Part shown: positions 37,815-62,783 of the stretch, one piece after another
Numbering within the stretch: the first letter of the stretch is position 1
Layout: each line of letters opens with the position of its first letter
Origin: Chloroflexota bacterium
GTDB taxonomy: Bacteria > Chloroflexota > Limnocylindria > Limnocylindrales > CSP1-4
Direction: 5' to 3'
DNA: 64,000 nt
Assembly: GCA_046045415.1 (NCBI GenBank)
Contig: JBJOLT010000015.1
Coordinates: forward strand, 5,988-69,987
Position numbers and translations under genes: made by a program
Notes under the pieces: model-generated
What the model was told of the DNA's origin: nothing
Databases searched by the model: none
The model's input: the letters and a program-made list of their open reading frames with translations, nothing else

Positions 37815-38867
<1,053 letters not shown>

Positions 38868-41618: not shown

Positions 41619-42518
41619 CTAGCAGGCGTCCGGCCCGGCTCGGCCGAGGAGCGAGGAGGTCGCGACGACCGCGAGGAGGGCGAGCGAGCCGCCCCACGCC
41701 CCGACGAAGAGAAGGGCGAGCGGGAGGGCGGCGGGACTCCCGATCGCGAGGGCGTCGCCGGCCGCCTCCCAGGCGAACCGCGCGAGCGCGAGCGACGGGA
41801 CGACGAGGAGGGCGGTGCGGGCGGCGTCGCGGAGTCCGCCGCGGACGAGCTCCCCGGGCCGTCGGATCGCCGCGGCGAGGGCGGCCGCGACCGCGCTCCC
41901 GGACCCCGTGCCGTCGACCGCGACCCGCCGGGCGGCGACGCCCCCGAGCCGGCTCGCGAGGAGCCACGCCGCTCCCACGAGGAGGAGGACGTCGGCGGCA
42001 CCCGCCGCGACCCTGAGCGGGAGGGCGACGGCGGGGTCCGATGGGCCGGTCAGCTCCCCGTACGCCACCGCGACGAGCCGGGGCACCGACCATGCGAGGG
42101 CGACGCCGAGCGGGATCGCGAGGAAGGCGCGGACGGCGAGGATCCGGAGCGGGTCGCCGCGCCGGGGAGTGGCGACGGGCACGACCCTCCCGTCGGCTCC
42201 GGCCGCGGTACGGAGGAGGGCGGCCTCGACGACCGCCGCGACGAGTCCCGCGCCGGCGAGCCAGCCGGCGACCCCGAGGACGGCGGACGCGATCGCGCCG
42301 AGCAGGGCGGGCGAGGGGCCGGACGGCGTGATCGCCGTCGGGCCGACGAAGGTGGCGACCCCGACGGACGACGGGAGGACGACGACCGGGAGGAGCGCGA
42401 CCGCGAGCCAGCCGTGGAGGAGCGCGACCGCGAGCGCGGCGGGCCAGAGGTCGCGTCGCGCGAGTGCCGCCCGGAGGCCGAGCGGCCCGCCGCTCATCCG
42501 GGCCGGGCCGTCCCGCAT
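41619..42518 (-). CDS. Hypothetical membrane protein
   Basis: Ala/Leu-rich hydrophobic profile on the gene-dense strand. The opposite frames are R/E/D-rich junk. No family was recognised. Confidence 0.35.
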   Translation of the reverse strand: MRDGPARMSGGPLGLRAALARRDLWPAALAVALLHGWLAVALLPVVVLPSSVGVATFVGPTAITPSGPSPALLGAIASAVLGVAGWLAGAGLVAAVVEAALLRTAAGADGRVVPVATPRRGDPLRILAVRAFLAIPLGVALAWSVPRLVAVAYGELTGPSDPAVALPLRVAAGAADVLLLVGAAWLLASRLGGVAARRVAVDGTGSGSAVAAALAAAIRRPGELVRGGLRDAARTALLVVPSLALARFAWEAAGDALAIGSPAALPLALLFVGAWGGSLALLAVVATSSLLGRAGPDAC

Positions 42519-42525
42519 CCGGACG

Positions 42526-45500
42526 TCACGGGGCGGGGCTGGCGCCGCCGGTCAGCTCGGCGAGCTGGCTGAGCGCCTCCTCGACGAGCGCGATCTCGCT
42601 CCCGTACGTGGCGAAGTCGCCGCGGCGGAGCGCCGCCTGCGCGAGCTCGAAGTGAAGGTTCGCGTACTCGATGAGCGCCGCGACGTCGCCGGTCGGCGGG
42701 GTCGGCGCGGGGCTCCCGCCCGGCGCCGGCGTCGGGGTCGGCGTCGCACCGCCCGAGCCGCCCGAGCCGCCCGAACCCCCGGAGCCGCCGGTCCCGTTCG
42801 AGGCGAGCTGCGCCTCGAGGGCCTCCTCGAGCGTGTCGCCCCAGACGACGGTCGTCGAGGTCGCGATGATCACCTTCTGGAGCTCGGGGAAGGCGGAACT
42901 CGTCGACTGCAGGTAGATCGGCTGGAGGTAGATGAGCGAGTCCTGGATCGGCATGACGATCAGGTTCCCGCGGATCACCCGGCTCCCGGCCTGGCTCCAG
43001 AGGCTGATCTGCGCGCTGATCGTCGGATCGGCGTCGATCCGCGCCTCGATCTGGTTCGGGCCGAGGACCGACGTGTTCTCCGGGAACTTGTGGACCCGGA
43101 CCTCGCCGTACGCCTCGCCGTCGTTCCGGGCCGCGATCCACGCGATCATGTTCGGCCGCCGCTGCGGGACCATCGGCTGGAGGAGGAGGAACTCGGTCGC
43201 GGTCTCCCCGGGCATCCGCATCTGGACGTAGTACGCCTCGGCGGGGAGCGTCTGGTCGCTCCCCGAGTCGACCGGGACGGTCCAGAGGTCCTCGCGGTTG
43301 TAGAAGGCGGCCGGGTCGCTCACGTGGTAGGTGGCGTAGAGGCGCGTCTGGACGTTGAAGAGCTCCTCCGGGTAGCGGACGTGCGAGCGGAGATCCTCGG
43401 GGAGCTCGTCGAGCGGCCGGAAGAGCGTCGGGAAGACGCCGCCGTAGGCCCGGACGAGCGGGTCGTCGGTGTCCGCGACGTAGAAGCTCATCGTCCCGTC
43501 GTACGCGTCCATGACGACCTTCACGGAGTTCCGGATGTAGTTGAACGGAAGGTCGCCGAGCCCGGTCCCGGGGAGTTCGAGCGGATCGAAGCGCTGGGCG
43601 TTCGGGAAGCGGTCGCTCACGGAGTAGGCGTCCTGGATCCAGACGAGCCGGCCGTCCTCGCGGATGACGAGGTACGGATCCTTGTCGTACCGGAGGAAGG
43701 GGGCGACGAGCCGGAGCCGCTCCTCGAGCGATCGGTGGAAGAGGATCTGGCTCTCCGAGGTGACCTGGTCGCTGATGAAGAGGTTCAGGTCGCGGAAGCG
43801 CGCGGCGAAGAGGAGCCGCGTCAGCGTGTTGTCGATGCGGACGCCGGTCGTGCCGGTCCAGCGGGTCTGCTGCCCGAGCCCGGCCGAGCCGCCCTCCGCG
43901 TCGCTCCCGACCGGGTAGTCGAACTCGCTCTGGCGGGCGCCGACGAGGACCCAGTCGCTCGGGCGCTCGCCGAAGTAGATCCGGAACTGGTCGATCGACG
44001 GCGCGCCGTCGACGGAGACGGGCGGGAGATCCTTGACGTAGAGGTTCGGCTGGCCGCTCTGCGTCGCCTCGTTCACCGGGACGAGGACCGCCCCGACGCC
44101 GTGCGTGAAGGTGATCTTCTGGTTGACCCACGAGTTCGCCTGCGGGTTCTTCTCGGGGGCGAGCTCGCGCGCCGAGAGCATCACCTGGCGCTGCTCGCCG
44201 TCGATCAGATAGCGGTCCGTGTCGACGTCGACGAACTCGTAGTACTGGCGGACCGTCTGGACCTGGTCGATGACGTCGCGGAGCGGCCGGTAGTCCCAGA
44301 CGCGGGCGCTCCGGAAGGTCTCGTCCTCGGCGGCGACGCTCGCCGCGGTGAGGGGCGCCTCGCCGCCGTAGTCGACCTGGCGCCAGTCGTCGAGGTCGTA
44401 GGCGAGCCGCGTCATCTCGATGTTGTTCCGGATGTACGGCTGCTCCTGGGCGAACTGGTTCGGGACGACGGTGAAGCGCTGGATGAACTCCGGGTAGAGC
44501 GTCCCGAGGACGACGGATGCGCCGAGCCAGATCGCGACCGTCATCGCGAGCGGCCAGACCATGTTCGTGAAGGCGCCGCCGACGAGGAACGCGGCGGCGA
44601 GCGCTGCGATCGCCGTGAGGACGTCGAGGCCGAGGAAGCGGGCGTTCGCGTCCGTGTAGCTGACGCCGGTGGCGACGCCCTGGGCGCCGTAGACGAGCTC
44701 GTACTTGTCGAGCTGGTACCCGGCGGCGACCGAGAGGAGGTAGAGGCCGGCGAGGACGCCGATGTGGACCCGGATCGGCGTCGTGGGGCGGAGGTCACCG
44801 CGGAGCCCCGCGAGGAGGTACCGGGCGCCGGCGACGATGAGCGCGCCGACGACGAGCCCGTTGAGGACCGACTGGACGAGCCGGAGGAACGGGAGGTCGA
44901 AGAGGAAGAACGAGATGTCCTGCCCGAAGACCGGGTCCGGGGCGGCCGCACCGGCGGCGTCGAACGGGACGCGGTTGAGGTAGAGCTGGATCGTCTCCCA
45001 CGACCCGGCGGCCGCGGCGCCGATCCCGAGCGCGAGGAGGAGCGAGAGGCCGACGATGAGCGGGATCCCGACCGGCCCGAGATCGGGCATCGAGGCGCCC
45101 GGCGTCACGTCGCGGGCCCCGCCCGACCGGGCCCGGTAGCGGTCGTCGCCCTGACCGGAGACGGTCCAGCCGCGCTCCCCGGCGGCGGCCGCCTCGTTCA
45201 TCCGGTCGATGAGGCGGGCGAGGGTCCCGCGGCCGTCCGGATCCGGCGGCGGGCCGAGCCGACCGGCGACCCAGAGGTTCCCGAGCAGGAAGAGGAGCGC
45301 GACGGCGAGGGCGGCGGCGAAGAGGATCAGCTGCGTCCCGACGCGGGTCCAGAAGACGTCGTCGTAGCCGACGCTCGTGAACCAGATCGCGTCGGTCCAG
45401 AGGTCGAGGACGAAGCCGCCGAGGAGGAAGACGAGGAAGGCGACCCCGGCGACGACGGTGAGGGAGACCTGGCGGACGGCGCCGATCCCGGCGCCGTCGT

Positions 45501-45717
45501 TCGGTCCGCCGGCGCCCCGGCGCGGCGGGCGCGGCCCGGACCCGCCGGGTCCGTCGGCGCGGGGCCGCCGGATCGGCTCCGGCTCGTCGTCCGCGTCCCG
45601 GTCGCCGGGGTCGCGCGGACCGCTCTCGCCGGGCGGCCGCTCGCCGCGGGCCATCGCGGCCTCGGCTTCCTGGCGGCGCCGCAGCTCTTCCATGAACTCG
45701 CCGAAGAGGTCCTTCAT
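42526..45717 (-). CDS. UPF0182-family large integral membrane protein
   Basis: 1063 aa. The architecture and conserved blocks are typical of actinobacterial UPF0182 proteins. There is a C-terminal GGS/PT-rich linker. Confidence 0.8.
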   Translation of the reverse strand: MKDLFGEFMEELRRRQEAEAAMARGERPPGESGPRDPGDRDADDEPEPIRRPRADGPGGSGPRPPRRGAGGPNDGAGIGAVRQVSLTVVAGVAFLVFLLGGFVLDLWTDAIWFTSVGYDDVFWTRVGTQLILFAAALAVALLFLLGNLWVAGRLGPPPDPDGRGTLARLIDRMNEAAAAGERGWTVSGQGDDRYRARSGGARDVTPGASMPDLGPVGIPLIVGLSLLLALGIGAAAAGSWETIQLYLNRVPFDAAGAAAPDPVFGQDISFFLFDLPFLRLVQSVLNGLVVGALIVAGARYLLAGLRGDLRPTTPIRVHIGVLAGLYLLSVAAGYQLDKYELVYGAQGVATGVSYTDANARFLGLDVLTAIAALAAAFLVGGAFTNMVWPLAMTVAIWLGASVVLGTLYPEFIQRFTVVPNQFAQEQPYIRNNIEMTRLAYDLDDWRQVDYGGEAPLTAASVAAEDETFRSARVWDYRPLRDVIDQVQTVRQYYEFVDVDTDRYLIDGEQRQVMLSARELAPEKNPQANSWVNQKITFTHGVGAVLVPVNEATQSGQPNLYVKDLPPVSVDGAPSIDQFRIYFGERPSDWVLVGARQSEFDYPVGSDAEGGSAGLGQQTRWTGTTGVRIDNTLTRLLFAARFRDLNLFISDQVTSESQILFHRSLEERLRLVAPFLRYDKDPYLVIREDGRLVWIQDAYSVSDRFPNAQRFDPLELPGTGLGDLPFNYIRNSVKVVMDAYDGTMSFYVADTDDPLVRAYGGVFPTLFRPLDELPEDLRSHVRYPEELFNVQTRLYATYHVSDPAAFYNREDLWTVPVDSGSDQTLPAEAYYVQMRMPGETATEFLLLQPMVPQRRPNMIAWIAARNDGEAYGEVRVHKFPENTSVLGPNQIEARIDADPTISAQISLWSQAGSRVIRGNLIVMPIQDSLIYLQPIYLQSTSSAFPELQKVIIATSTTVVWGDTLEEALEAQLASNGTGGSGGSGGSGGSGGATPTPTPAPGGSPAPTPPTGDVAALIEYANLHFELAQAALRRGDFATYGSEIALVEEALSQLAELTGGASPAP
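42749..42795. repeat. Tandem 9-nt repeat (cccgagccg x3-4) encoding a (GGS)n linker in the UPF0182 protein
   Basis: Seen directly in the sequence. It translates to GGSGGSGGSGGSGG followed by a PT-rich stretch. Confidence 0.5.
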
Positions 45718-46255: not shown

Positions 46256-46500
46256 CGGCGCCCGGACCGGTCCTCCTCGCCCTCGTCGGTCCCGATCAGG
46301 AGGCGGAGGAGGAGGCCGCGGCGCGGCCGGGGACGCTCGGGGAGGGCGACGGTCGTGACGCCGGGGATCGGCGGGAGCTCGTCCTCTGCGGCGCCCGGCT
46401 TCGGGAGCGTCGCGCCGCACGACGGACAGACGGCGGCCGACTTCGCCCGCGACGCCTTCGGGAGCGGCTCCGAGCACCAGGGGCAGGCGGTCACTCCCAT
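46252..46500 (-). CDS. Small zinc-ribbon protein (83 aa, CPWC...CPSC)
   Basis: Starts [14 protein letters not shown]...CPSCG. It overlaps the guaA stop by 10 nt. Confidence 0.45.
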
Positions 46501-48236
46501 TCGATCGTCGCCGGCGGCTTCGAGCTGATGTCGTAGACGACGCGGTTCACGCCGGGCACCTCGTTCACGATCCGGGCGGAGATCCGCCCGAGGACGTCGT
46601 ACGGGAGCTTCGCCCAGTCGGCGGTCATCCCGTCCTCGGAGGTGACGGCGCGGATCGCGACGACGTTCGCGTAGGTGCGGCCGTCGCCCATGACGCCGAC
46701 GGAGCGGACCGGGGTGAGGATCGCGAACGACTGCCAGACGCTCCGGTAGAGGCCGGCCGCCTTGATCTCGTCGATCACGATCCAATCCGCCTCGCGGAGC
46801 GTGTCGAGCCGCTCGGCGGTCACCTCGCCGATGATCCGGATCGCGAGGCCGGGGCCGGGGAAGGGCTGGCGCTGGACCATCGCCTCCGGGAGCCCGAGCT
46901 CCAGCCCGACGACCCGGACCTCGTCCTTGAAGAGGTACCGGAGCGGCTCGATCAGCTGGAACCGGAGGTCCGCCGGGAGGCCGCCGACGTTGTGGTGCGT
47001 CTTGATCTTCTGGGCGGTCTTCGTGTCCGAGGTGGCCGACTCGATCACGTCTGGGTAGAGGGTCCCCTGGGTGAGGAAGTCGATCCGCCCGAGCTTCGTC
47101 GCCTCCTCCTCGAAGACGCGGATGAACTCGTCGCCGATGATCCGGCGCTTCTGCTCCGGGTCGATGACCCCCGCGAGCCGGGCGAGGAAGCGCTCCCGCG
47201 CGTCGACCATCACGAGCCGCATCCCGAGGTTCGCCTCGAAGGTCGCGCGGAGGAGCTCCGACTCCTTCTTCCGCATCAGCCCGTGGTCGACGTAGATGCA
47301 CGTGAGCCGGTCGCCGACCGCGCGATGGACGAGCGCCGCCGCGACCGCCGAGTCCACCCCGCCGGAGAGCGCGCAGATCACCTTCCCGTCGGAGCCGGTG
47401 GACGCGGCGTGCCCGTCGACCCGGTCGCGGATCTCCGCGACGGTCGTCTCGATGAAGTTCGCCGGGGTCCACGCGGGGGCGATCCGGGCGATCCCGGTCA
47501 CGAAGTTGCGGAGGAGGTCCTTGCCGCGCGGCGTGTGGACGACCTCGGGGTGGAACTGGATCCCGTAGAGGCGCCGGTCCGGGGCGGCGAGCCCCGCGTA
47601 CGGCGTCGAGTCGGTCTGGGCGGTCGCGACGAAGCCCTCGGGGAGCCGGGTGATCGAGTCGCCGTGGCTCATCCAGACCGGCTGATCCCGCTCGAGCCCG
47701 GCGAAGAGCGCGTCCGACTCGCTCGTCACGTGGACCGACGCCGGCCCGTACTCGCGCTTCGCGGAGGCGGCGACCTCGCCGCCGAGCTCGCGCGCCATCA
47801 GCTGCGCGCCGTAGCAGATCCCGAGGACCGGGAGCCGGCCGCCCCAGATCGAGGCGTGCGGCCGCGGCGCCCCGGCGTCGTAGACGGAGTTCGGGCCGCC
47901 GGAGAGGATCACCGCGCGGACGCCGCGTCGCTCGAGCTCGTCGACCGGCGTGTCGTGCGGGAGGAGCTCGGAGTAGACGTTCAGCTCGCGGACCCGGCGG
48001 GCGATCAGCTGCGCGAACTGGCTCCCGAAGTCGAGGACGGCGACGACGCCCGGCTCCGGGACGATCGCGGCCGTCGGCGGCGGGTCCGACGGCGCCCGCG
48101 ACGGCGCGGGCGCATCGAGCGCGACCTCGAGATAGGCCTCGACCTCCGCGTCGTCGGGCGCGAGGACCCGGTGCCCGGCGTTCGCCGCGTCGCCGTGGAC
48201 GGTCTTCCCGCGCTCGGTCCTCCCGCGCTCGGTCAC
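46491..48236 (-). CDS. guaA: GMP synthase (glutamine-hydrolysing)
   Basis: GATase1 domain (GICYGAQ) plus an ATP-PPase domain (SGGVDS). The N-terminal ~50 aa are probably extension. Confidence 0.9.
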
Positions 48237-48294: not shown

Positions 48295-48717
48295 TCACGA
48301 CCGGTTCCGCATCGCCTCGGCGGCCATCGCGAGGTAGCCGTCGATCCGCTCGACGACGACCGGCGGCGTCCCGAGCTCGGCCGCCGTCACGGCGAGCGAG
48401 GCGCGCATCGCCTCGAGCCAGTGGTCGCGCTCCTCCGGCCCGATCGGGAACTCGAAGTGACGCGCTCGGAGGCGGGGGTGGCCGCGCTCGGCGGAGTAGG
48501 TCGTCGGGCCGCCCCAGTACTGGGCGAGGAAGAGGGTGAGGCGGCGTCGGGCGGGGCCGAGGTCATCCCGCTCGGGGTAGAGGCGAAGGAGGACCTCGTC
48601 GGTCGCCACCCGATCGTAGAAGCCGTCGACGAGCCGCTCGAAGAACGGCATCCCGCCGGCGGCCTCGAAGACGCTCGTCTCGTCGTCGGCTCCGGCGGCG
48701 GCCGGTTCGCTCGTCAC
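48295..48717 (-). CDS. Group II truncated haemoglobin (trHbO/GlbO-like)
   Basis: Aligns to GlbO ([41 protein letters not shown]). A GTG start was chosen. Confidence 0.75.
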
Positions 48718-48727
48718 GGGTCCCGGG

Positions 48728-49969
48728 TCAGCCGCCGCGCTGCCAGCTCTTCCCCTCGGTCTGCACCGACGGGGCATGGACGATCTCGACCGCCTGCATC
48801 TCGCGGAGCGTGCGGGCCCCGAGGGCGGCCATCGACTGGCGGAGCGCGCCGACGAGGTTCTCGGAGCCGTCGGTGACGCGCGCCGGGCCGAAGAGGATCC
48901 GCTCGAGGCTCCCGACCGTCCCGACCGAGATCCGCGTCCCGCGCGGGAGCGTCGGCGACGGGGCGGCCATCCCCCAGTTCGTCCCCCGGCCGGGCGCCTC
49001 CTCGGCGCGGGCGAGCGGCGAGCCGAGCATCACCGCATCCGCTCCGGCGGCGATCGCCTTCGCCAGCTCGCCGCCCCGGCGCATCCCGCCGTCGGCGACG
49101 ACCGGGACGTACCGGCCGGTCTCCTTCATGTACGCGTCGCGCGCGGCGGCGACGTCGGCGATCGCGGTGACCTGCGGGACGCCGATCCCGAGGACCTCGC
49201 GCGTCGTGCACGCGGCCCCGGGCCCGACGCCGACGAAGACCGCGGCGGCGCCCTGCTCCATGAGGGCGAACGCCGCTTCCGCGTTCGTCGTGTTCCCGAC
49301 CGCGACCGGGATCGGCATGAAGCGGGTGAAGTCGCCGAGCTCGAGCGGCTCGTAGCCGGTCGCGAGGTGGCGGGCGCTGCTCACCTGGCTCTGGACGAGG
49401 AAGAGGTCGGCGCCGTGCTCGGCGCAGAAGGGACCCCACCGTCGGGCCGCGGCGGGGGTGGCGGCCACCGCGACCTTCGAGCCGGCGTCGCGGATCGCGG
49501 CGAGGCGTCGGGCGACGAGCTCCTCCTGAAGAGGCTCGGCGTATGCCGCCGCGAGCAGCCCCTGGACCTCGTCCTTCGGCGCGGCCGCGATCCGGGCGAG
49601 GACGGCGTCGGGGTCGGGGAAGCGACCCTGGACGCCCTCGAGGTTGAGGACCGCGAGCCCGCCGAGGCGGGCGAGCTCGCCGGCGAGCCGCGCGTCGACG
49701 ACGGCGTCCATCGCGGCGGCGAGGACCGGGATCGCGAGCGGGATCCCGGCGAAGACCTGGGAGAGGTCGACGTCGCCGGGCTCGACCGTGCTCGTTCCGG
49801 GAGCGAGCGAGACGTCCTCGAAGCCGTAGGTCGGGCGGATCGCATCGACCTTCGAGCGGAAGACCCGCCGGGCCGCGGGATCGGTCGCCGAGACCGGGAC
49901 GCCTCTTCCGTGCTGCAACGCGGCCCTCCAGGGTTGCCGGCGCTGCCGGCGGGGGTGAGCGGGTTGCAC
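48728..49969 (-). CDS. IMP dehydrogenase-family protein GuaB3 type (no CBS domains)
   Basis: Aligns along its length to the mycobacterial GuaB3 family (TIM barrel, GVGPGAACTTREVLGIGVPQ). Confidence 0.8.
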   Translation of the reverse strand: MQPAHPRRQRRQPWRAALQHGRGVPVSATDPAARRVFRSKVDAIRPTYGFEDVSLAPGTSTVEPGDVDLSQVFAGIPLAIPVLAAAMDAVVDARLAGELARLGGLAVLNLEGVQGRFPDPDAVLARIAAAPKDEVQGLLAAAYAEPLQEELVARRLAAIRDAGSKVAVAATPAAARRWGPFCAEHGADLFLVQSQVSSARHLATGYEPLELGDFTRFMPIPVAVGNTTNAEAAFALMEQGAAAVFVGVGPGAACTTREVLGIGVPQVTAIADVAAARDAYMKETGRYVPVVADGGMRRGGELAKAIAAGADAVMLGSPLARAEEAPGRGTNWGMAAPSPTLPRGTRISVGTVGSLERILFGPARVTDGSENLVGALRQSMAALGARTLREMQAVEIVHAPSVQTEGKSWQRGG

Positions 49970-50067: not shown

Positions 50068-50556
50068 TCAGGTCAGTGCCCGGGCCCCCGCGAGCGTCAG
50101 CTCGAACCAGACGGCGCGCGCCGGGTCCGCGAGATCCTCGGCGATCCGCCGGAGCGCCTCGCGATAGCCGGGCCAGACGACCTCGGCGATCGCGTCCTCG
50201 ATCGGGACCCACCGGTGCCCGTCGTGCTCGTGCGAACGGACGGGCTCGATCCCCGGGCGGACGACGACGGCGAAGACCGCGCTCAAGACGACGGCGTCGA
50301 CCGACGGCTCGTGGAACTGGTTCACGAGGTCGAGGTCGTAGAAGGCCTCGATCCCGTCGGCGGCGATCCCGGTCTCCTCGGCGAGCTCGCGGAGCGCGCC
50401 GAAGGTGATCCGCTCCCCCGGCTCGAGCGACCCGGAGACGCACTGCCAGAGGCCGGGGAGGATCCGGCCCGGGGCGCGGCGGAGGAGCAGGGTCTCGAGG
50501 CGGTCGCCGGCGCGCCGGACGACCCAGCAGTCGACGAGGTCCGGCCTGAGGCTCAC
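50068..50556 (-). CDS. NUDIX hydrolase
   Basis: Nudix box GSLEPGERITFGALRELAEETGI. A GTG start was chosen. Confidence 0.75.
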   Translation of the reverse strand: MSLRPDLVDCWVVRRAGDRLETLLLRRAPGRILPGLWQCVSGSLEPGERITFGALRELAEETGIAADGIEAFYDLDLVNQFHEPSVDAVVLSAVFAVVVRPGIEPVRSHEHDGHRWVPIEDAIAEVVWPGYREALRRIAEDLADPARAVWFELTLAGARALT

Positions 50557-50569
50557 GGGGCGGCGGCGA

Positions 50570-50899
50570 TCAGAGCCGCTCGAACCGCTCGACCGGGACG
50601 ACGAAGACCGTCGCCCCGCCGATCTCCACCTCGAGCGGGTACGGCATGAAGAACTCGCCCGGCTCGACGATCGGCGGCAGCGGGTCGACGACCTGGGTCC
50701 GGGCGCGGCACGTCTCGCGGACGATCCCGAGGATCTCGTCGATCCGATCCTCCTCGGCGCCGACGAGGACGGTCGCGTTCGACTGGCGGAGGAACCCGCC
50801 CGACGACTGGAGGCGGGTCGCCCGGTGGTCGGCGGCGAGGAGCGCCTCGACGAGCGGGCCCGCATCCTCGCCGTGGACGATCGCGATGACGAGCTTCAC
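50570..50899 (-). CDS. darA: PII-like c-di-AMP receptor DarA (YaaQ/DUF970 family)
   Basis: 109 aa aligning along its whole length to B. subtilis DarA (MKLVIAIV..., TRLQSSGGFLRQSNATVLVG, YPLEVEIGGATVFVVPVERF). Confidence 0.8.
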   Translation of the reverse strand: MKLVIAIVHGEDAGPLVEALLAADHRATRLQSSGGFLRQSNATVLVGAEEDRIDEILGIVRETCRARTQVVDPLPPIVEPGEFFMPYPLEVEIGGATVFVVPVERFERL

Positions 50900-50994
50900 G
50901 GGGACGAGTATCGGTCAGGCGGGCCGCCGGGTCCACCCTCCCGGGGACGGTCGGGGGACCGGCCCGGGGAGGGGGCTCGTCGCGACCCCCTACA

Positions 50995-52047
50995 ATGCGC
51001 GGGACGACCCCGGAGGAGGAGCTGGTGGCGATCGAGGGACCCGGCACGGAGACGAAGCTCGACGCGCTGACCGACGCAGCGGCTGCGCTCGCGCGGGCGA
51101 GCGACCTCGACGCCGCGATCGGGGCGATCCTCGACGCGACCGTCGGCGCGGTCGGCGCGACCGCCGGCGCGGTCTTCCTCCGCCAGCCCGACTCGCCGAT
51201 CCTCTACGTCGCCGCCCGCCACGGCCTCGACGACGCCGCGGTCGCGACCTTCGAGCGCGAGGTCGAGGACCCGGCCCACCCGGTCGCCGCCGCCGCCCGC
51301 GACGTCGCCGCGGTCTTCGACCGCCCGGTCGTCGGCGCCGAACCGCGGGCCCGCTCGGCGGCGGACCTCCCGCTCGTCGTCACCCACGAGGGCCTCGACC
51401 TCGCCCTCGGCGTGATGACGCTCGCCTGGGCGAGCGCGCGGACGACCTCCCGGAGCGAGCAGCAGCTCGCGCGCGCCGCCGCGGACCTCATCGCCGCCGC
51501 GGTCGACCGGGCGCACCTCGGCGCGCTCCTCGCCGAGCGGGCGGAGTGGTACGAGCGGCTCACCCACACGGACGCCCTCACCGGGCTCGCGAACCGGCGG
51601 ACCTTCGAGCGGGTCCTCGAGATGGACCTCGCCCGGGCCGCGCGGCAGCGGACCGAGCTCTCGCTCGTCGTCTTCGACGTCGACGACTTCGGGAACCTGA
51701 ACGCGACCCGCGGCCACGCCGTCGGCGACGACGTCCTCCGGACGATCGCCGCGACGATCGCGGAGGGGGTCCGCCTCGTCGACACCGTCGCCCGGCTCGG
51801 ACCGGACGAGTTCATCGTCAGCGCCCCCGGGGCGGGCGGCGTCGTCGTCGCCCGCCGCATCCTCGCGACGCTCGCGGCCGGGAACGCGGAGGGCGGGGAG
51901 CCGTTCACCACCTCCGCCGCCGTCGTCCGCTACCCGAGCGACGGGGCGGACGGTCCGGAGCTGATCGCGGCCGCCGAGGCGGCGATCGCCCGGGCGAAGG
52001 CGCAGGGCCCCGGTTCGGTCGAGGCCGCGGAGTACCTCGCGCCCTAG
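50995..52047 (+). CDS. GAF-domain diguanylate-cyclase-like protein with degenerate GPDEF motif
   Basis: N-terminal GAF domain followed by a GGDEF domain (TGLANRR, VVFDVDDFGNLN) in which RxGGDEF is RLGPDEF. Confidence 0.8.
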   Translation: MRGTTPEEELVAIEGPGTETKLDALTDAAAALARASDLDAAIGAILDATVGAVGATAGAVFLRQPDSPILYVAARHGLDDAAVATFEREVEDPAHPVAAAARDVAAVFDRPVVGAEPRARSAADLPLVVTHEGLDLALGVMTLAWASARTTSRSEQQLARAAADLIAAAVDRAHLGALLAERAEWYERLTHTDALTGLANRRTFERVLEMDLARAARQRTELSLVVFDVDDFGNLNATRGHAVGDDVLRTIAATIAEGVRLVDTVARLGPDEFIVSAPGAGGVVVARRILATLAAGNAEGGEPFTTSAAVVRYPSDGADGPELIAAAEAAIARAKAQGPGSVEAAEYLAP

Positions 52048-52727
52048 GCCCCGGGCGTCCCGACGGCGAGCCCGAGCCGCCGGACCGCATCGGCGAGCGA
52101 GCCCGCGACCGTCGCCTCGTCGCGAGTCGCGTCGACGACGACCCAGCGGGCCGGGTCCTCGGCCGCGAGCCGGAGGAAGCCCGCCCGGACCCGCTCGTGG
52201 AACGCGACGTCGAAGGCCGACTCGAACCGGAGATGCTCGTCGGAGCCCTTCCGCGCGAGACCGGCGGCGACCGGGACGTCGAGGAGGATCGTGAGGTCCG
52301 GCCGGAGGCCGCCGGTCGCGTAGGCGCCGATCGCCCGGAGCTCGTCGACCGGCTGCCCGGAGCCGAAGCCCTGGTAGGCGAGCGTCGAGTCCGCGTACCG
52401 GGCGACGATGACGACCTCGCCGCTCGCGAGCGCCGGCTCGATCACCTCGTCGACGTGCTGGGCGCGGGCGGCGTTGAAGAGGAGGACGTCGGTCCGCGGC
52501 CCGATCGGGACCTCGGCCGGGTCCGCGCGGAGGAGCAGCTCGCGGATCCGCTCGCCGGCGGCCGTCCCCCCCGGCTCCCGCGAGAGCCTCACCCGGTGCC
52601 CGGCGGCGGTGAGCGCCGCGGCGAGCCGGGCCGCCTGCGAGGTCTTGCCGCTCCCGTCGGGGCCCTCGATCGTGATGAACCGGCCGCGCGCGGCGTGCTG
52701 CCGGGGAGGGGCGGTCGGGTCGCTCAC
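52044..52727 (-). CDS. tmk: Thymidylate kinase
   Basis: P-loop GPDGSGKTS, a DRY-like motif and a lid region. Confidence 0.85.
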   Translation of the reverse strand: MSDPTAPPRQHAARGRFITIEGPDGSGKTSQAARLAAALTAAGHRVRLSREPGGTAAGERIRELLLRADPAEVPIGPRTDVLLFNAARAQHVDEVIEPALASGEVVIVARYADSTLAYQGFGSGQPVDELRAIGAYATGGLRPDLTILLDVPVAAGLARKGSDEHLRFESAFDVAFHERVRAGFLRLAAEDPARWVVVDATRDEATVAGSLADAVRRLGLAVGTPGA

Positions 52728-52788: not shown

Positions 52789-54243
52789 ATGAAGGACCTC
52801 GCCGACCTCGCGCTCGACACCGCCACCGCAGCCGGCGCCGGCTATGCCGACGTCCGGATCGTCGAGCGGACGGAGGAGTCCGTGACGGTCCGCTCCGGGC
52901 GGCTCGAGGCCGCCGCCTCCGGGGCGGAGGACGGGGTCGGGGTGCGGGTCCTCGTCGACGGTGCGTGGGGCTTCGCGGCGACCCACCGACTCGAGCGACA
53001 GGACGTGGAGCGGGTCGCCGCCGAGGCGGTCGAGATCGCCCGGGCGTCCGCCACCGCGCTCAGGACCCCGGTCCGGCTCGACGACCGGCCGGTCGCGCGG
53101 GGCCGCTACGAGACGCCGTGCGCGGAGGACCCGTTCGCCGTCCCGCTCGAGCAGAAGGTCGCCGAGCTCCTCGCCGCCGATGCCGAGATGGGCCGGGTGA
53201 AGGGCATCGCGTGGACGGAGGCGACCTACGGGGCGCGACGCGAGCGGAAGACGTTCGCCGCCTCGGACGGCTCCTTCGTGGAGCAGACGATCGTCCACGC
53301 CGGGGCGGGCATCGAGGCGAACGCCGTCGAGGGCGACGAGCACCAGCGGCGGAGCTACCCGATGGACACCGGCTCGTGGCGATCCGCGGGCTACGAGCAC
53401 ATCCGCGGCCTCGGGCTCGTCGAGAACGCCGGGCGGATCGCCGAGGAGGCGGTCGCGCTCCTCTCCGCGCCGCAGTGCCCGTCGGGCCGGATGACGGTGA
53501 TCCTCGACCCGAGCCAGCTCTACCTCCAGGTCCACGAGAGCTGCGGCCACCCGACCGAGCTCGACCGGGTCTTCGGGACCGAGGCGTCGTACGCCGGCAC
53601 TAGCTTCCTCACGACGGACAAGCTCGAGGCCGGCTTCCGGTACGGCTCCGACCTCGTGACGATCGTCGCCGACGCGACCGAGCCGGGAGGCCTCGGCACC
53701 TTCGGCTGGGACGACGAAGGGGTCGCCGCCCAGCGGGTCCCGCTCGTCGAGGACGGGATCTTCGTCGGCTACCTCTCGTCCCGCGAGACGGCCCCGCGGA
53801 TCGGGCGACGGAGCGGCGGGGCGATGCGGGCCGACGGCTGGAACCGGATCCCGCTCATCCGGATGACGAACGTCAGCCTCGTGCCGCGCGACGGGATGTC
53901 GCTCGGGCAGATCATCGAGTCGACCGACGACGGCCTCTACCTCGTGACGAACCGCTCGTGGTCGATCGACGACCGGCGGCTCAACTTCCAGTTCGCGACC
54001 GAGGTCGCGTACGAGGTGAAGGGCGGGAAGATCGGCCGGCTCCTGAAGAACCCGACGTACACCGGGATCACGCCCGAGTTCTGGCGCTCGTGCGACGCCG
54101 TCGCGGACGCGAGCAGCTACCGGATGTTCGGGACCCCGAACTGCGGGAAGGGCGAGCCCGGCCAGGTCGGCTTCGTCGGCCACGGGGTGAGCGGCGCCCG
54201 GTTCCGCGACGTCCAGGTCGGGGTCGGGAAGTGGCGCGGATGA
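52789..54243 (+). CDS. tldD: TldD-family metalloprotease
   Basis: 484 aa with HESCGH. Confidence 0.9.
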   Translation: MKDLADLALDTATAAGAGYADVRIVERTEESVTVRSGRLEAAASGAEDGVGVRVLVDGAWGFAATHRLERQDVERVAAEAVEIARASATALRTPVRLDDRPVARGRYETPCAEDPFAVPLEQKVAELLAADAEMGRVKGIAWTEATYGARRERKTFAASDGSFVEQTIVHAGAGIEANAVEGDEHQRRSYPMDTGSWRSAGYEHIRGLGLVENAGRIAEEAVALLSAPQCPSGRMTVILDPSQLYLQVHESCGHPTELDRVFGTEASYAGTSFLTTDKLEAGFRYGSDLVTIVADATEPGGLGTFGWDDEGVAAQRVPLVEDGIFVGYLSSRETAPRIGRRSGGAMRADGWNRIPLIRMTNVSLVPRDGMSLGQIIESTDDGLYLVTNRSWSIDDRRLNFQFATEVAYEVKGGKIGRLLKNPTYTGITPEFWRSCDAVADASSYRMFGTPNCGKGEPGQVGFVGHGVSGARFRDVQVGVGKWRG

Positions 54244-55604
54244 GGTACGCGCCGCCCCCGCGCGATCCCGCGCCGACGCTCGAGCTCGCCGAGGCCGCGG
54301 TCCGGCACGCGCTCGACGCCGGGGCCGACGAGGCCGAGGCGGTGGTCCTCGCGAGCGACTCGGCACTCACCCGCTTCGCGAACAGCGAGATCCACCAGAA
54401 CGTCGCCGAGCGGAGCCTCGAGGTCCGGCTCCGGTTCATCCGCGACGGCCGGTCCGGGGTCGTCACCGCCGACGCGACGGACGACGAGGGGCTCCGCCGG
54501 CTCGCCGGATCGGCCGCCGGCCTGACGAGGCTCCTCGAGCCGCAGCCGGACCTCCCGTCGCTCCCCGACCCGACGCCGCTCCCAGAGGTGACCGGCGCGT
54601 TCGCCGAGGCGACGGCGACGGCGTCGCCGGCGATGCGGGCCGAGGGGGCACGGGCCGTGATCGCGGCGGCCGACGCGGCGGGTGTCGGGTCGTTCGGTTC
54701 GTTCACGACCTCGGTCGACTGGACGGCCGTCGTCAACTCGCGCGGGATCCGCGTCGCGGAGGCGCGGACCCGGGCGCACCTCGTCACGGTCGCGATGGGC
54801 CCGGACGAGGGGACGGGCTACGCGGAGTCGTGCGCGGTCGACGTCGGCACGATCGACGCGGCGGCGCTCGGCCGGGAGGCGGCCGCGACCGCCCGTGCCT
54901 CGGCGCGTCCGGTGGACATCGCCCCGGGCGACTACCCGGTCGTCCTCGCGGAGTACGCGGTCGGCGACATCCTCGACTACCTCGGCTACTGCGGCTTCTC
55001 CGCCCTCGCCGTCCAGCAGGGACGCTCGTTCTTCGAGGCGGGGAAGCGGATCGGCTCGCCCCTCGTGACGATCTGGGACGACGCGCTCGACCCGGCCGGG
55101 ACGCCGGCGTCGTTCGACTTCGAGGGCGTCGCGAAGCAGCGGGTCCCGCTCGTCGTCGACGGGGTCTGCCGCGAGATCGTCCACGACGCGGCGACGGCCG
55201 CCGCCGCGGGACGCCGCTCGACGGGCCACGGCCTCCCCGCGCCGAACACGTGGGGCCCCTTCCCGCTCAACATGGTGATGCGCGCCGGCGACGCGAGCCG
55301 CGACGAGCTGATCGGCGGCCTGGAGCGGGGGCTCCTCGTGACGCGGATCTGGTACTCGAACCCGGTCCACCAGAAGCAGCTGATCATGACCGGGATGACC
55401 CGCGACGGGACCTTCCTCGTCGAGGGCGGACGGATCGTCGGACCGGTCCGGAACCTCCGCTTCACGCACAGCTATCTCGATGCGCTCGCCGCGACGAGCG
55501 CGGTCGGCCGCGAGCGGCGGACGATCTCGGGGATGCTCGGCACGTACGTCGTCCCGTCGATCCGGGCCGACTCGTTCACGTTCACGGGCGCGACGGAGCG
55601 CTGA
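54240..55604 (+). CDS. pmbA: PmbA/TldE-family protease partner
   Basis: 455 aa, TldD/PmbA fold. ATGA overlap with tldD. Confidence 0.85.
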   Translation: MRYAPPPRDPAPTLELAEAAVRHALDAGADEAEAVVLASDSALTRFANSEIHQNVAERSLEVRLRFIRDGRSGVVTADATDDEGLRRLAGSAAGLTRLLEPQPDLPSLPDPTPLPEVTGAFAEATATASPAMRAEGARAVIAAADAAGVGSFGSFTTSVDWTAVVNSRGIRVAEARTRAHLVTVAMGPDEGTGYAESCAVDVGTIDAAALGREAAATARASARPVDIAPGDYPVVLAEYAVGDILDYLGYCGFSALAVQQGRSFFEAGKRIGSPLVTIWDDALDPAGTPASFDFEGVAKQRVPLVVDGVCREIVHDAATAAAAGRRSTGHGLPAPNTWGPFPLNMVMRAGDASRDELIGGLERGLLVTRIWYSNPVHQKQLIMTGMTRDGTFLVEGGRIVGPVRNLRFTHSYLDALAATSAVGRERRTISGMLGTYVVPSIRADSFTFTGATER

Positions 55605-55623
55605 CTTCGCGGGAGGCGGACGG

Positions 55624-56613
55624 ATGGCGAAGATCGGCTACGCGGCGATGCTCGAGCAGTTCCACCCGACGGACCTGCTCGACTGGTGCGCGCAGGCGGA
55701 GGCGGCGGGGTTCTCGGCGGGCTTCATGGTCTCCGAGCACTTCCACCCGTGGACGCCGCAGCAGGGCCAGTCCGCCTTCGCGTGGAGCTTCATGGGGGCG
55801 CTCGGGACGCGGACGTCGCTCCCGTTCGGCACCGCCGTCACCTGCCCCGGCTTCCGCTACCACCCGGCGGTCATCGCCCATGCCGCCGCGACGCTCGGTG
55901 CGATGTTCCCCGGCCGCTTCTACCTGGGGCTCGGCGCCGGGGAGGCGCTCAACGAGCACGTCGTCGGGTCGTTCTGGCCGGAGATCGGCGTCCGGAGCGC
56001 GATGATGTTCGAGTCGATCGAGATCATCAACAAGCTCTTCACCGGCGAGGTCGTCAAGCACAAGGGCGAGTACTTCACGCTCGAGAGCGCCCGTCTCTAC
56101 ACCCGCCCGGAGAAGCCGGTCCCGATCCTCGTCGCCACCGCGGGCCCGGTGAACGCGAAGAAGACCGGGAAGTACGCGGACGGGATCATCACCGTCGGCG
56201 CGGCGGACGAGAAGATCGCGATGCTCTGGGGGAAGTACGAGGAGGGCGCGAAGGAGGCGGGCAAGGACGTCACGACGACGCCGAAGCTCCTCCAGATCCA
56301 CGTCTCCTGGGCGCGGACCGACGACGAGGCGGTCGAGAACGCGATGAAGGAGTGGCCGAACGGCGGGATGCCCTTCCCGAAGCAGGACATCAAGAACCCG
56401 GAGGACTTCGCCGCGATGGCGAAACTCGTCAGGCCGGAGGACTTCAAGAACCGCGTCCTCATGACGTCCGATCTCGGCAGGCACATCGCCCACATCCAGC
56501 ACTACGTCGACATGGGCTTCGACGAGGTCCACGTCCACAACGTCGGCCGGAACCAGGCCGAGTTCATCGAGGTCTTCGGGAAGGACGTCATCCCGGCCCT
56601 CAGGCTCGGGTAG
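55624..56613 (+). CDS. LLM-class F420-dependent oxidoreductase (Fgd-like glucose-6-phosphate dehydrogenase family)
   Basis: 330 aa aligning to mycobacterial Fgd1 (HFHPW, GLGAGEALNE). Confidence 0.75.
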   Translation: MAKIGYAAMLEQFHPTDLLDWCAQAEAAGFSAGFMVSEHFHPWTPQQGQSAFAWSFMGALGTRTSLPFGTAVTCPGFRYHPAVIAHAAATLGAMFPGRFYLGLGAGEALNEHVVGSFWPEIGVRSAMMFESIEIINKLFTGEVVKHKGEYFTLESARLYTRPEKPVPILVATAGPVNAKKTGKYADGIITVGAADEKIAMLWGKYEEGAKEAGKDVTTTPKLLQIHVSWARTDDEAVENAMKEWPNGGMPFPKQDIKNPEDFAAMAKLVRPEDFKNRVLMTSDLGRHIAHIQHYVDMGFDEVHVHNVGRNQAEFIEVFGKDVIPALRLG

Positions 56614-56616
56614 CCG

Positions 56617-57039
56617 TCAGCGGCGGGCGCCTCGTCCGTCGAAGAACCCGAGCCGGACGAGCAGGTCCCGGTTCGCCGCCACCGCCGCGTAGAGGAGCCG
56701 GACCGCGCGACGGAACGGGGTGACGCCGAGCCACGGGCGGACCGCGCCGCCCCCCGGGAGCCGGACCGCGATCGCGAGGATCGCGTCGCCGCCACGCGCC
56801 ACCTCCCCGCTCCGCGGGTCGACGACGGTGAGCGCCTCGGCGAGATCGTGCGTCCCTGCAGCCGCGCGCACGTGGTCGTGGGCGGACCCGGGCGCCTCGG
56901 CGAGCGGGAGCAGCTCGAACGCCCGGCGGCCCCTCGGCCCGGCATCCCAGCGCCGGAGGTGCGCGACCGCCCAGCGGCAGAACGAGCACTCCCCGTCGTA
57001 GAGGACGACGAGCGACCCGGCGCCCCCGGTCAGCCCCAC
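56617..57039 (-). CDS. Thiol-disulfide oxidoreductase DCC family (DUF393)
   Basis: [17 protein letters not shown] start was chosen. Confidence 0.7.
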
Positions 57040-59159
57040 GAGCTGCGGGCCGTCTCGGGGTAGAGCCTGACGCGCCGGTACGGCTCCCGGCCGCGGGACC
57101 GCGAGACGACGTTCGCGCGCTCGGCGAGCTGGTGCTGGAGGCGGCGGATGTACGCGTTCTGCGGCGAGAGCTCCACCGGCTCCGAGCCGTGGAGGACGAG
57201 CCCGATCCCCTCCTCGGCCTCGCGGAGCGCCGCCTCGCGCGGGTCGATCGCGAGCGAGAAGATCGAGGTGAGGCTCGCCTCCATCTGGAGGACCGTGTTG
57301 CTCTTCAGGACGTAGACGGGCATCGAGCGCTCCTCCGCCTCGCGGAGCTGCGGCGTCTTCTGGCGGTACTCGCTCTTCAGCACCATGACGACGTCGGCCT
57401 CGTCCACGTCGCGCGCGACGACGACGGGGAGCTGGAGCTCGCGGACCGCCTGCTCGAGCCGCTTCCGGCTCACCCCGATCGGCAGGACCCGGATCGTCGG
57501 GAGGATCGACCCCTCCTCGTCGTCGTACCCGGCGTCCGCGTCTGCGCCGGACCCGAAGGCCTCGGCGGCGAGCTGCTCCGCGTTGACCGGGCCGGTCCCC
57601 TCCTCGGCCCGGAGCGACGTGATCGCCCGCTCCGCCTGGTCGAGCCACTCCTGCTGGCGGCGGAGCTCCCGGGCGTCGCGGGCGCGCGGCTCCGGGGAGG
57701 GGACGGCGCCGCGCTCGAGCGGACCGCGGTCCGCGATCTCGCCGATGACGAACGGGACGCCCGGCACGGTCGGCGCCGCGCCGCCGGGGGCGGCCGGACC
57801 GACTGCGAGGTCGCGACCGGAGAGCCGCTCCCCGGGGAGCGAGTACGGTCCCCCGGGCGGGCCGCCGTCGCCGCGGTCGTGGCGGGTGCCGGTCCCGCGA
57901 CCCGCCGACTCGCGGCCGCCCGGCTCGCGGCCGCGCGCCCCCCGCCAGCCGCCGGACTGACCGGGCCGGTACCCCGGGCGGTACGCCGCTCCCTGCTCCC
58001 CGTGGCCGCCGCGGTACGAGCCACCGCGCCAGCCCGGCTCCATCCGCCATGGCGCGCCGCCACCGACGAGGCCGGCGAAGCGCTCGGTGCCGAGACGCTC
58101 GCGCGGCGACGGGCGCGGCCGCGACTGGGACCGGTGGACCCCCTCCTCGTCGCGCCACCGGAGCTCCGGCGCCTCGGGCTCCCCGCGGAGGAGCGAGTCG
58201 ACGGTCTCCGCGACGTCGGCGTGGACGATCACCCGGTCGCGGTCCTGGATCTCGATGACGACGTCGAAGGTGGGCGGCGCCTTCCGCTCGAGGACGCTCT
58301 TCTGCGAGCGGCGGCGGCGGGCTTCCTCGTCGCCGAGCGTGACGCTCTGGATCCCGCCGATCAGGTCCGAGAGGGTCGGGTTGAGCATCAGGTTGTCGAG
58401 GTTGTTCCCGTGCGCCGTCCCGATCAGCTGGACGCCCCGCTCCGCGATCGTCCGGGCGGCCTGCGCCTCGAGCTCCGTCCCGATCTCGTCGATGACGATC
58501 ACCTGGGGCATGTGGTTCTCGACCGCCTCGATCATCACCTCGTGCTGGAGCGAGGGCGTCCGGACCTGCATCCGGCGCGCCTTGCCGATCGCCGGATGCG
58601 GGATGTCGCCGTCCCCGGCGATCTCGTTCGACGTGTCGACGACGACGACCCGCTTGCGGAGGTCGTCGGCGAGGACGCGCGCCGCCTCGCGGAGCATCGT
58701 CGTCTTGCCGATCCCCGGGCGGCCCATGATGAGGATCGACTTCCCGCTCTCGACGAAGTCCCCGATGATCTCGATCGTCCCGAAGACGGCGCGCCCGATC
58801 CGGCAGGTGAGCCCGACGATCTTCCCGTTCCGGTTCCGGATGGCGCTGATCCGGTGGAGCGTCCGCTCGATGCCCGCCCGGTTGTCGTCGCCGAACGACC
58901 CGATGTGGTCGACGACGTAGCCGATGTCGGCCTCGGTGACCTCGCGCTCGAGGAGCATCACCTCGTCGTTCGGGAAGCGCGCCTCGGGACGCCGGCCCAG
59001 GTCGAGGACGACCTCGATGAGGTCGGACCGGTCCGGGAGGGCGCGGACGGCGGCGACCACCTCCGGCGGGAGCGCCGTCAGGAGGAGCTCGAGGTCGTCG
59101 GCCGCCTCGCGGCGGGTGGCTGCGGTCGGGCGCGGGTCGGGCACGGTCTCTCCTTCCAC
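57030..59159 (-). CDS. SpoIIIAA/Ycf45-like AAA+ ATPase with RGG-rich disordered linker and C-terminal R3H/KH-like domain
   Basis: Walker [10 protein letters not shown] and Walker B VIVIDEIG. An RGG/RG-rich low-complexity region of about 150 aa precedes a basic C-terminal domain. The GTG start is uncertain. Confidence 0.7.
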
Positions 59160-59161
59160 GC

Positions 59162-60202
59162 TCAGCGGATCGCGGGGACGAGCGCCGGCTGGGCGACGCG
59201 GACGAGCGTCTCCTTCAGGAGGAGGACGACGCTCGCGACCGTCGCGAAGCCCGCCTCCTCGAGGCGGCGGTCGAGCGGCGCCTCGTACGTGCGGACCGGG
59301 GAGATGACGCCGTGCTCCCGCCGGTCGCCGCCGCGATGCTCGGCGATGACGCCGAGACCGTGGCGGATCGCGCCGGACGGGTCGGCCCCGGGACGGGCGA
59401 TCACCTTGAGGTAGTGCGGCTGGTCCGCCTCCGCGACCCCCACCTGGACGAAGGCGTCGAGGAGCGTCCCGTCCTCGCCCCCGTCCTCGGCCTCGACGAC
59501 GAACGAGCGGACGTCCGCGAAGCGGAGGAGCGGCGCGAGGCTGGAGCGCGGGACGCGCCACGCGCCGCCCTGCCGCTCCCAGTCGACGAGCCGGTAGGCC
59601 TCGAGCCGCCGGACGGGGACCGGGGTCGTCGCCTCGTAGAGGCGGCTGAGCGCGAGGGCGTCGAGCGGGGTCGTCGGCCGGATCCGTGCCGCGGCGATCT
59701 CGTCCCGGCCCATCGGCTCGGGGAGCGGCCGGTCGGCCGGGCGGACCATCACGAGCTCCTCGCCGTAGCGGGCGAAGCCCGACTGCATGAAGAGCTCGAC
59801 GTTCCCCGCCCGGTCGAGGCACGCGACGTGGAGGCGGATCGCCCCGCGCCGGGACCCCTCGCGCATCAGCTGCTGGAGGAGGCGGAAGCGGATGTCGCCG
59901 GCGGTCGCCGCCCCGATCGCGTCGAGCTCCACGATCGTCCACTCGTCGCGATGGCCGTCCCGCTCGACCCTCAGGAGGCCCGCGACGGTCCCCGACTCCT
60001 CGTAGACGTAGAGCAGGTCATGCGGGCTGAAGGCGCCGAGGGGGAGCCGGAAGAGACTGAAGACGCCGATCGGCGGACCGCTCACCGGCAGCCCGAGCGA
60101 GCGGGTCTCCTGCGCCTCCCGCTCGGCGAGCCGGGAGAGCTCCCCGAGCGCGGCGAGGTCCGTGAGGCGCGCGATCCGGACCTTCCCGGGGCGCGCGCTC
60201 AT
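59162..60202 (-). CDS. Hypothetical protein, possible tandem GNAT-like acyltransferase fold
   Basis: 347 aa, not R-rich. ATGA overlap with the pdxT stop. The family assignment is tentative. Confidence 0.45.
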
Positions 60203-61783: not shown

Positions 61784-61907
61784 GATCGGATCGGTCCTTC
61801 AGCGGTGGTGGTCGCGCCGAACGCCGCCGGGACGGCCCCGGCCCCGCGTCCGCACCTGATCATTCGCGGCCACCGCCTCCGCGGATTATCGCACGCGTGG
61901 TCGAACG

Positions 61908-61936
61908 GCCCGGCGACCGTCCGGTCCGGTCGCCGG
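61908..61936 (-). terminator. 11-bp stem hairpin (CCCGGCGACCG-tccggtc-CGGTCGCCGGG) immediately after the VOC gene stop
   Basis: Seen directly in the sequence. It lies between the VOC gene and the pdxS promoter region. Confidence 0.35.
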
Positions 61937-61938
61937 GC

Positions 61939-62727: not shown

Positions 62728-62783
62728 GTGCGCAGCGTAGCGCCGCGACGACGCGCCCCCGGGGCGGTACCCTCTCGTGGCGC

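Follow-up and report, generated by a model that had tools for sequence, protein, structure and literature searches.

DarA, also called PstA and, in Bacillus subtilis, YaaQ, is a PII-like receptor for cyclic di-AMP (c-di-AMP) that has been described as a Firmicutes protein and whose partner proteins, to our knowledge, long escaped identification. In Staphylococcus aureus PstA, the ligand is contacted by N24, R26, T28, F36 and L37 of the GGFL T′ loop, N41, G47, F99, and Q108, and the substitutions T28A, N41A, and GGFL-to-AAAA impair or abolish c-di-AMP binding (Campeotto et al., PMC4316997). A tmk-pstA operon, invariable in six Firmicutes, was described in 2015, and PstA was found to be absent from Actinobacteria (Choi et al. 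2015, PMC4475381). Apo-PstA has also been tied to thymineless death in Listeria (PMC12802241), and a 2026 preprint connects it with a repressor complex of GlnR, GlnA, and PstA in S. aureus (PMC13484208). Here, we describe a darA locus carried by a 64-kb stretch of Chloroflexota DNA (the window), in which darA is flanked by a divergent gene for a GAF-like/GGDEF protein and by a same-strand gene for a Nudix hydrolase (NUDIX). We consider it probable that this locus is an old Terrabacteria tmk-darA pair that was broken up in a Limnocylindrales-like Chloroflexota lineage and that the pairing of darA with NUDIX is a matter of local gene order.

The window was compared with 92 related darA loci (designated by L numbers), which were scored by tblastn with the window proteins. 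Three of these proteins correspond to MFM2105281-83 (locus tags RL338_313-315), encoded on a 71-kb contig of a metagenome-assembled genome (MAG) named "Chloroflexota bacterium", where all are labelled "hypothetical protein", and an identical 162-aa NUDIX model is deposited at NCBI (100% identity). The nearest DarA homologues are 75 to 81% identical and come from Chloroflexota and Ca. Limnocylindrales MAGs, the nearest species representatives being Ca. Limnocylindrales/Limnocylindria, and no actinobacterial name occurs among the best 80 species-representative DarA loci. The host is therefore a member of the Chloroflexota close to Ca. Limnocylindrales and not, as the initial annotation of this DNA had it, a high-GC actinobacterium, in agreement with the survey of Choi et al. 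(PMC4475381). The layout of the locus was also seen on metagenome contigs of independent origin (L002 and L004, with DarA, GGDEF protein, and Tmk 93 to 100% and NUDIX 91 to 98% identical), so the arrangement is not an assembly artefact.

The full-length alignment of the 109-aa protein to YaaQ, on which the initial annotation had named it DarA, was confirmed. The protein matches PF06153 (CdAMP_rec) over residues 1 to 108 of 109 (E 2.1e-36; 124.9 bits against a gathering cut-off of 27), and its matches to solved structures are to PstA from S. aureus (4d3g, E 7e-31), PstA from Listeria (4rww, 1e-27), and YaaQ (4rle, 7e-26). It has the same length as the proteins of S. aureus, L. monocytogenes, and B. 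subtilis (4d3g/4d3h, 4wk1, 4rww, and 4rle), aligns with them without gaps, 4d3g included, and has roughly half of its residues identical in the printed alignment. Window DarA keeps K2, D12, R26, T28, G34-G35-F36-L37, N41, T43, G47, R67, G94-G95-A96, and F99, and hence every contact validated by mutation in S. aureus PstA (T28, N41, and GGFL); among the listed contact positions it differs only at N24, which is D, and at Q108, which is R. Both of these positions vary freely across the 93 DarA copies (the loci plus the window), in all of which T28 and L37 are present; G34 and G35 are found in 92, F99 in 91, G47 in 90, and N41 in 89. The protein also fits the family in its short T′ loop, its long B′ loop (about residues 68 to 92), the D12-R67 salt-bridge pair, and GGA 94-96, the last two of which match the Firmicutes set, and close homologues are already named "cyclic-di-AMP receptor" at NCBI. 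With the canonical PII proteins GlnB/GlnK and SbtB it has the ferredoxin-like PII fold family in common, but it lacks their long T loop and their ATP/2-oxoglutarate motifs, and the match to them is about 29 orders of magnitude weaker than that to PstA: the best canonical PII structure is 1ufl at E 0.047, and Pfam gave no P-II match at E 0.01 or better. The assignment to GlnB or CutA that the initial annotation had named as contrary evidence thus did not arise. The residues of the ligand pocket are kept by DarA in Chloroflexota and Dormibacterota, and, judged by its sequence, the window protein is a genuine DarA/PstA-family c-di-AMP receptor, an ordinary representative of that family. It is predicted to bind c-di-AMP as a homotrimer, at the subunit interfaces, through the T′ loop, T28, N41, G47, and F99, and the ligand-bound form would alter the contacts of the B′ loop with partner proteins.

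The window locus also shares with the Firmicutes the genomic linkage of darA to tmk (PMC4475381): darA follows tmk on the same strand at a distance of 1.1 kb. The linkage noted in the initial annotation therefore stands, without the actinobacterial host. Unlike its Firmicutes counterparts, however, the window darA lies outside a tmk operon, the opposite-strand GGDEF gene filling the gap; it probably has its own, leaderless promoter, and neither holB nor yaaR follows it. The tmk linkage is widespread in the Chloroflexota and Dormibacterota too, often with a 4-nt translational overlap. tmk immediately precedes darA, on the same strand, in 11 of 11 Dormibacterota, 5 of 22 other Chloroflexota, and 19 of 32 Bacillota/Mycoplasmatota loci, as well as in one of the two Limnocylindria loci whose DarA is 66% identical. 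In L017, L018, L025, L052, and L087, high-GC outgroups from the Limnocylindria and Dormibacterota, the tmk stop and the darA start share 4 nt, which suggests translational coupling. Such deep conservation of the pair fits the genetics that tie PstA to thymidine starvation (PMC12802241, PMC13484208) and suggests that the link to tmk is functional rather than a Firmicutes accident.

Many of the high-GC outgroup loci have a gene for a SpoIIIAA-like/R3H ATPase within about 1 kb upstream of tmk. By tblastn, the window orthologue, of whose listed open reading frame (ORF) the first ~270 codons look over-extended, is 60 to 74% identical to the ORF that stands before tmk in L015-L019, L024-L027, L034, L052, L068, L076, and L087, and the outgroups with this ATPase directly before tmk-darA include Dormibacterota, Chloroflexia, and Limnocylindria. 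In the window, the gene lies 4.3 kb farther upstream, behind the opposite-strand TldD-PmbA block. Since the outgroups keep the ATPase gene before tmk and the window orthologue is displaced, the ancestral order was likely ATPase-tmk-darA, and the window lineage likely acquired an opposite-strand insertion on either side of tmk.

The insertion on the darA side can be followed through the loci whose DarA is at least 67% identical to that of the window (the clade). A divergent GGDEF/darA pair with tmk farther upstream was found in all 11 clade loci having enough upstream sequence, and it is retained over the whole range of DarA identity, from 100 to 67%, amid repeated gains and losses of flanking genes. 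In the 73 loci outside the clade, no GGDEF gene stands beside darA, and no homologue of the window GGDEF protein was found in flanks of up to 8 kb a side. The GGDEF gene was therefore inserted once between tmk and darA and then inherited in the clade. The initial annotation had described it as convergent, filling the tmk-darA gap and sharing a CTAG with the tmk stop. It is indeed convergent with tmk, the two stops overlapping in CTAG at 52044-52047, but the relationship that is conserved is the divergent pairing with darA, for which the GGDEF gene is the sole invariant partner. The start of the GGDEF gene may be GTG 51025 and not the annotated ATG 50995: GGAGGAGGAG lies just upstream of the GTG, TACAAT overlaps the annotated ATG, and a 340-aa member of the GGDEF protein cluster fits the later start. 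Between tmk and the GGDEF gene, several relatives carry a pair of genes for an extracytoplasmic function (ECF) sigma factor and an anti-sigma factor (RskA/zf-HC2), namely L005 (5138-6699), L091 (2172-3721), and L092 (2588-4071); this pair is absent from the window.

As a consequence of the insertion, darA would run from its own promoter. Of 14 clade loci, 12 have a [T/G]ATACT box at −12 to −14 relative to the darA start codon, with its end about 7 nt short of that codon, compared to a background frequency in these loci of 6e-5 per position. Besides the window, the box is at the equivalent position in L005, L007-L013, L089, L091, and L092; L014 and L016 have TATACT 36 to 42 nt upstream of darA instead, L016 together with GGAGG, and in L089 and L092 a TTGACC lies 18 nt from the −10 box. 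Because the −10 box ends so close to the start codon, the darA mRNA is probably leaderless, and with a promoter of its own darA would not be co-transcribed with tmk in the window genome. A generic promoter and terminator scan returned no sigma-70 site, the darA boxes scoring 8/12 under a rule of 9/12, and its one terminator-like match on the gene strand was dismissed as it is inside darA.

The product of the divergent gene matches PF00990 (E 2.8e-30), and its N-terminal region is GAF-like, with a GAF_3 match of 25.1 bits (E 2.5e-5) just under the cut-off of 27 and weak or faint matches in the orthologues. The orthologues are only 38 to 48% identical, and the active-site motif drifts from GGDEF in most of them to GPDEF in the window, as initially annotated (in the context RLGPDEF), GADEF in L009, and GSDEF in L016; we found no literature on "GPDEF" in connection with GGDEF. 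The window motifs are laid out as RLVD-TVARL-GPDEF, with an RxxD I-site five residues before GPDEF, and the RxxD is kept in all nine aligned orthologues. Alignment with WspR and further cyclases of solved structure shows that the DxD, the DE pair, the C-terminal Lys, and the N and D that contact guanine are all retained in the window protein. Two residues of WspR are missing from it, the Lys of FK (FG in the window) and the Arg of GRN (GPG), both of which contact phosphates in PleD and WspR, and the protein thus does not show the combination of GG[D/E]EF with phosphate-binding Lys/Arg that marks an active diguanylate cyclase. Owing to these losses, we interpret it as a cyclase of reduced or no activity that would be able to bind cyclic di-GMP (c-di-GMP) at its I-site. 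PelD and PopA, in which the GGDEF domain is degenerate but the RxxD I-site is retained, serve as c-di-GMP receptors; the window protein resembles them in its RxxD five residues before a non-canonical motif and in the loss of the phosphate-binding Lys/Arg. It differs from them in its N-terminal GAF-like sensor and in retaining the metal and guanine residues (DxD, N, D, and DE), with which residual cyclase activity might go.

The clade-wide retention of the divergent pair through so much turnover in its flanks, together with an I-site kept in every aligned orthologue of a protein whose active site drifts, would fit a node of c-di-GMP/c-di-AMP cross-talk, working through a shared regulatory region or through DarA-GGDEF binding, with the GGDEF protein serving mainly as an I-site c-di-GMP sensor. 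We regard this as unlikely. The pairing arose only once, two back-to-back promoters in ~100 bp resist insertion even where there is no functional link, and no literature on a DarA-GGDEF link was found. That DarA and the I-site GAF-GGDEF protein might link the two signalling systems directly, for example by DarA binding or controlling the GGDEF protein, seems to us quite improbable.

On the other side of darA, the NUDIX gene begins with a GTG (50556) exactly 13 nt past the darA stop, as initially annotated. Membership of the Nudix superfamily was judged by the GX5EX7REUXEEXGU box together with PF00293, and the product has both, with 66 bits against a cut-off of 21.1 (E 4.3e-18) and the canonical Nudix box GSLEPGERITFGALRELAEETG. 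It falls below every curated subfamily cut-off: the best is NudB (PRK09438; 48 bits against 103, aligned over model positions 20 to 148 of 151), followed by MutT-type models, and the matches in the PDB are weak and mixed, to MutT-like proteins and to diadenosine tetraphosphate (Ap4A) hydrolases (3u53 and 1kt9). The canonical box and a length of ~160 aa are common to this protein, to NudB (a dihydroneopterin triphosphate/dATP diphosphatase), to MutT, and to Ap4A hydrolases. An assignment to NudB, based on a WQxVxG-like motif and on the best NCBIfam match, was rejected, since the score is under half of the cut-off. Unlike a NudB gene, the window gene has guaB3 and not folate genes as its conserved neighbour. 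A defence-system reading was also dropped, PADLOC having given only weak generic fold-level matches for NUDIX and Tmk.

The gene that follows darA varies even among close relatives. It is NUDIX in the window and in L001-L004, L007, L008, and L014; elsewhere in the clade, darA is followed by a Fic fragment, a major facilitator superfamily (MFS) transporter gene, and DinB (L005), by DinB (L089), by MaoC and an MFS gene (L091), by an MFS gene (L092), by a gene for an 880-aa protein (L011 and L013), or by a reverse-strand ORF (L016). One or two unrelated genes break the darA-NUDIX adjacency in L005, L012, L089, L091, and L092, and NUDIX is absent from L011, L013, and L016. Nudix-box genes no more than 6 kb away from darA are confined to close relatives (DarA at least 72% identical), and none was found at that distance in the loci outside the clade. 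In every locus that has it, NUDIX is immediately upstream of guaB3, once with a small F420H2-reductase gene between, and across the nine distinct arrangements with NUDIX the distance to guaB3 is at most ~750 nt. Because the gene after darA varies while NUDIX stays by guaB3, the stable units are GGDEF/darA and NUDIX-guaB3, and genes have often been inserted at the darA-NUDIX junction. The direct coupling of darA and NUDIX seen in the initial annotation is an unstable, lineage-specific gene order and not a new signalling module.

Several observations nevertheless weigh against this reading of the locus. Clade loci with NUDIX always have it downstream of darA, on the same strand, within ~3 kb and often tightly packed, and a long darA-to-guaB3 transcript, hence some co-regulation, is possible; in the window genome itself, a single transcript probably covers darA and NUDIX, which are 13 nt apart with no promoter-like box in between. 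This constant orientation, the close spacing, the recurrence of direct adjacency in L007, L008, and L014 (DarA 72 to 79% identical), and the weak similarity to Ap4A hydrolases are what would speak for a two-gene module in which DarA senses c-di-AMP and the Nudix enzyme removes the ligand or a related adenine nucleotide (Ap4A or pppApA) or is itself regulated by DarA. We hold such a module to be very unlikely. The adjacency is repeatedly broken and the association is with guaB3, as set out above, and the best curated match is to NudB and not to an Ap4A hydrolase, and is itself sub-threshold. The chemistry is unfavourable as well. Nudix hydrolases cleave the pyrophosphate bonds of nucleoside diphosphates linked to another moiety, and c-di-AMP and pApA hold only phosphodiester bonds. 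Degradation of the DarA ligand by NUDIX, as the initial annotation had thought plausible, is therefore chemically implausible.

The remaining observations of this kind concern the receptor. Window DarA scores 127.3 bits (E 3.2e-37) against the NCBIfam DarA equivalog NF058593, below the trusted cut-off of 140, which we read as divergence from the Firmicutes set and not as a sign of another function. There is also no cyclase within the 64-kb window, so that c-di-AMP synthesis by the host is not shown by this DNA. In line with the initial annotation, which had reported neither a cyclase nor a phosphodiesterase, the diadenylate cyclase motif GxRH[RK][AS] was found in none of the long ORFs from a six-frame translation of the window, and Pfam scans of ~45 window ORFs gave neither a diadenylate cyclase (DAC) domain nor a phosphodiesterase domain of the DHH or HD type. 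Chloroflexi are known to have DAC-domain proteins. Rfam, run over the whole window at gathering thresholds, returned only a tRNA and neither a c-di-AMP (ydaO) nor a c-di-GMP riboswitch, and a literature search on Limnocylindria together with c-di-AMP found nothing. That the 109-aa protein is instead a PII-like protein of other specificity (GlnB/GlnK, CutA, or a receptor for another nucleotide), as the sub-threshold equivalog score, the D and R at positions 24 and 108, and the lack of a cyclase and of a c-di-AMP riboswitch in the window might suggest, is in our view highly improbable, since PF06153 is matched at full length, GlnB-type structures reach only E 0.05, the residues whose mutation abolishes binding (T28, N41, and GGFL) and the adenine-specific G47 and F99 are all conserved, and the D and R fall at positions that are variable throughout the family.

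We thus favour the break-up of an old tmk-darA pair, and the tempting combination of a receptor with a Nudix enzyme is unsupported. The supposed DarA-NUDIX-GGDEF module is an inherited, insertion-prone neighbourhood plus one clade-wide divergent GGDEF/darA pair of uncertain meaning. On its downstream side, darA borders a same-strand nucleotide-metabolism array made up of NUDIX, guaB3, a truncated globin gene, and guaA, and the guaB3-associated NUDIX enzyme is most likely a nucleoside-triphosphate/diphosphate pyrophosphohydrolase with a housekeeping role and not a c-di-AMP-degrading partner of DarA. The coordinates of these genes and of the other features of the locus are collected in Table 1.

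Table 1. Features of the darA locus and its surroundings, in window coordinates
Feature	Coordinates	Strand	Basis or remark
guaA, GMP synthase	46491..48236	-	Translation; orthologues carry GATase and GMP_synt_C domains
Bacterial truncated globin	48295..48777	-	PF01152, E 9.6e-28; start probably internal, giving ~139 aa as in homologues
guaB3-family IMP-dehydrogenase-related gene	48728..49918	-	TIGR01304, 419.5 bits (cut-off 342)
NUDIX hydrolase, 162 aa, single domain	50068..50556	-	PF00293 and Nudix box GSLEPGERITFGALRELAEETG
darA/pstA homologue, predicted 109-aa PII-like cyclic-di-AMP receptor	50570..50899	-	PF06153 and gapless alignment to 4d3g
Putative −10 box GATACT	50907..50912	-	Ends 7 nt before the darA GTG
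Putative −35 box TGGACC	50930..50935	-	17 nt upstream of the −10 box; tentative reading of the sequence
GAF-like and degenerate GGDEF gene	50995..52047	+	PF00990; GAF_3 sub-threshold; alignments to WspR and orthologues
tmk, dTMP kinase	52044..52727	-	PF02223, E 2.6e-44; TIGR00041, 157 bits (cut-off 83)
TldD, PmbA, and luciferase-like monooxygenase block	52789..56613	+	Pfam; between tmk and the R3H ATPase gene
SpoIIIAA-like ATPase/PTPase/R3H gene	57030..59942	-	Pfam and tblastn

Within the array, the order NUDIX-guaB3-globin-guaA is kept across the clade, with variable insertions that include F420H2-reductase, hydrolase, and polyketide-cyclase-like genes. The guaB3 gene likely starts at TTG 49918, behind GGAGGG, and homologue gene calls are 396 aa long; TAGACT followed by this GGAGGG, as a Shine-Dalgarno sequence, may represent signals of its own. 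Like actinobacterial GuaB3, which TIGR01304 describes, the product scores above the equivalog cut-off and is encoded in a purine (guaA) neighbourhood; the window gene differs in having the NUDIX gene before it and the truncated globin gene after it. The latter begins ~13 nt past guaB3 if the internal start found in homologues is used.

Elsewhere in the window, several ORFs have a coding-like GC content at third codon positions (GC3) and no Pfam match at E 1e-5 or better: 21556-23334(+), 15598-16317(+), 41619-42518(-), 61897-62799(+), and 23414-24022(-). A 1063-aa UPF0182 membrane protein (42526-45717(-)) and a RadC-MreB-MreC cluster (36813-39724(-)) are ordinary housekeeping genes. A second nucleotide house-cleaning enzyme is a 387-aa protein that has two stretches of the MazG nucleotide pyrophosphohydrolase type (16922-18085(-)) and is encoded beside a SurA-like protein with three peptidyl-prolyl isomerase (PPIase) domains. 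Finally, a heliorhodopsin gene (949-1770(-); PF18761, E 1.7e-79) adjoins a Na+/H+ exchanger fragment and a transaldolase gene, which places this light-sensing rhodopsin of debated function in the genome of a Limnocylindrales-like member of the Chloroflexota.

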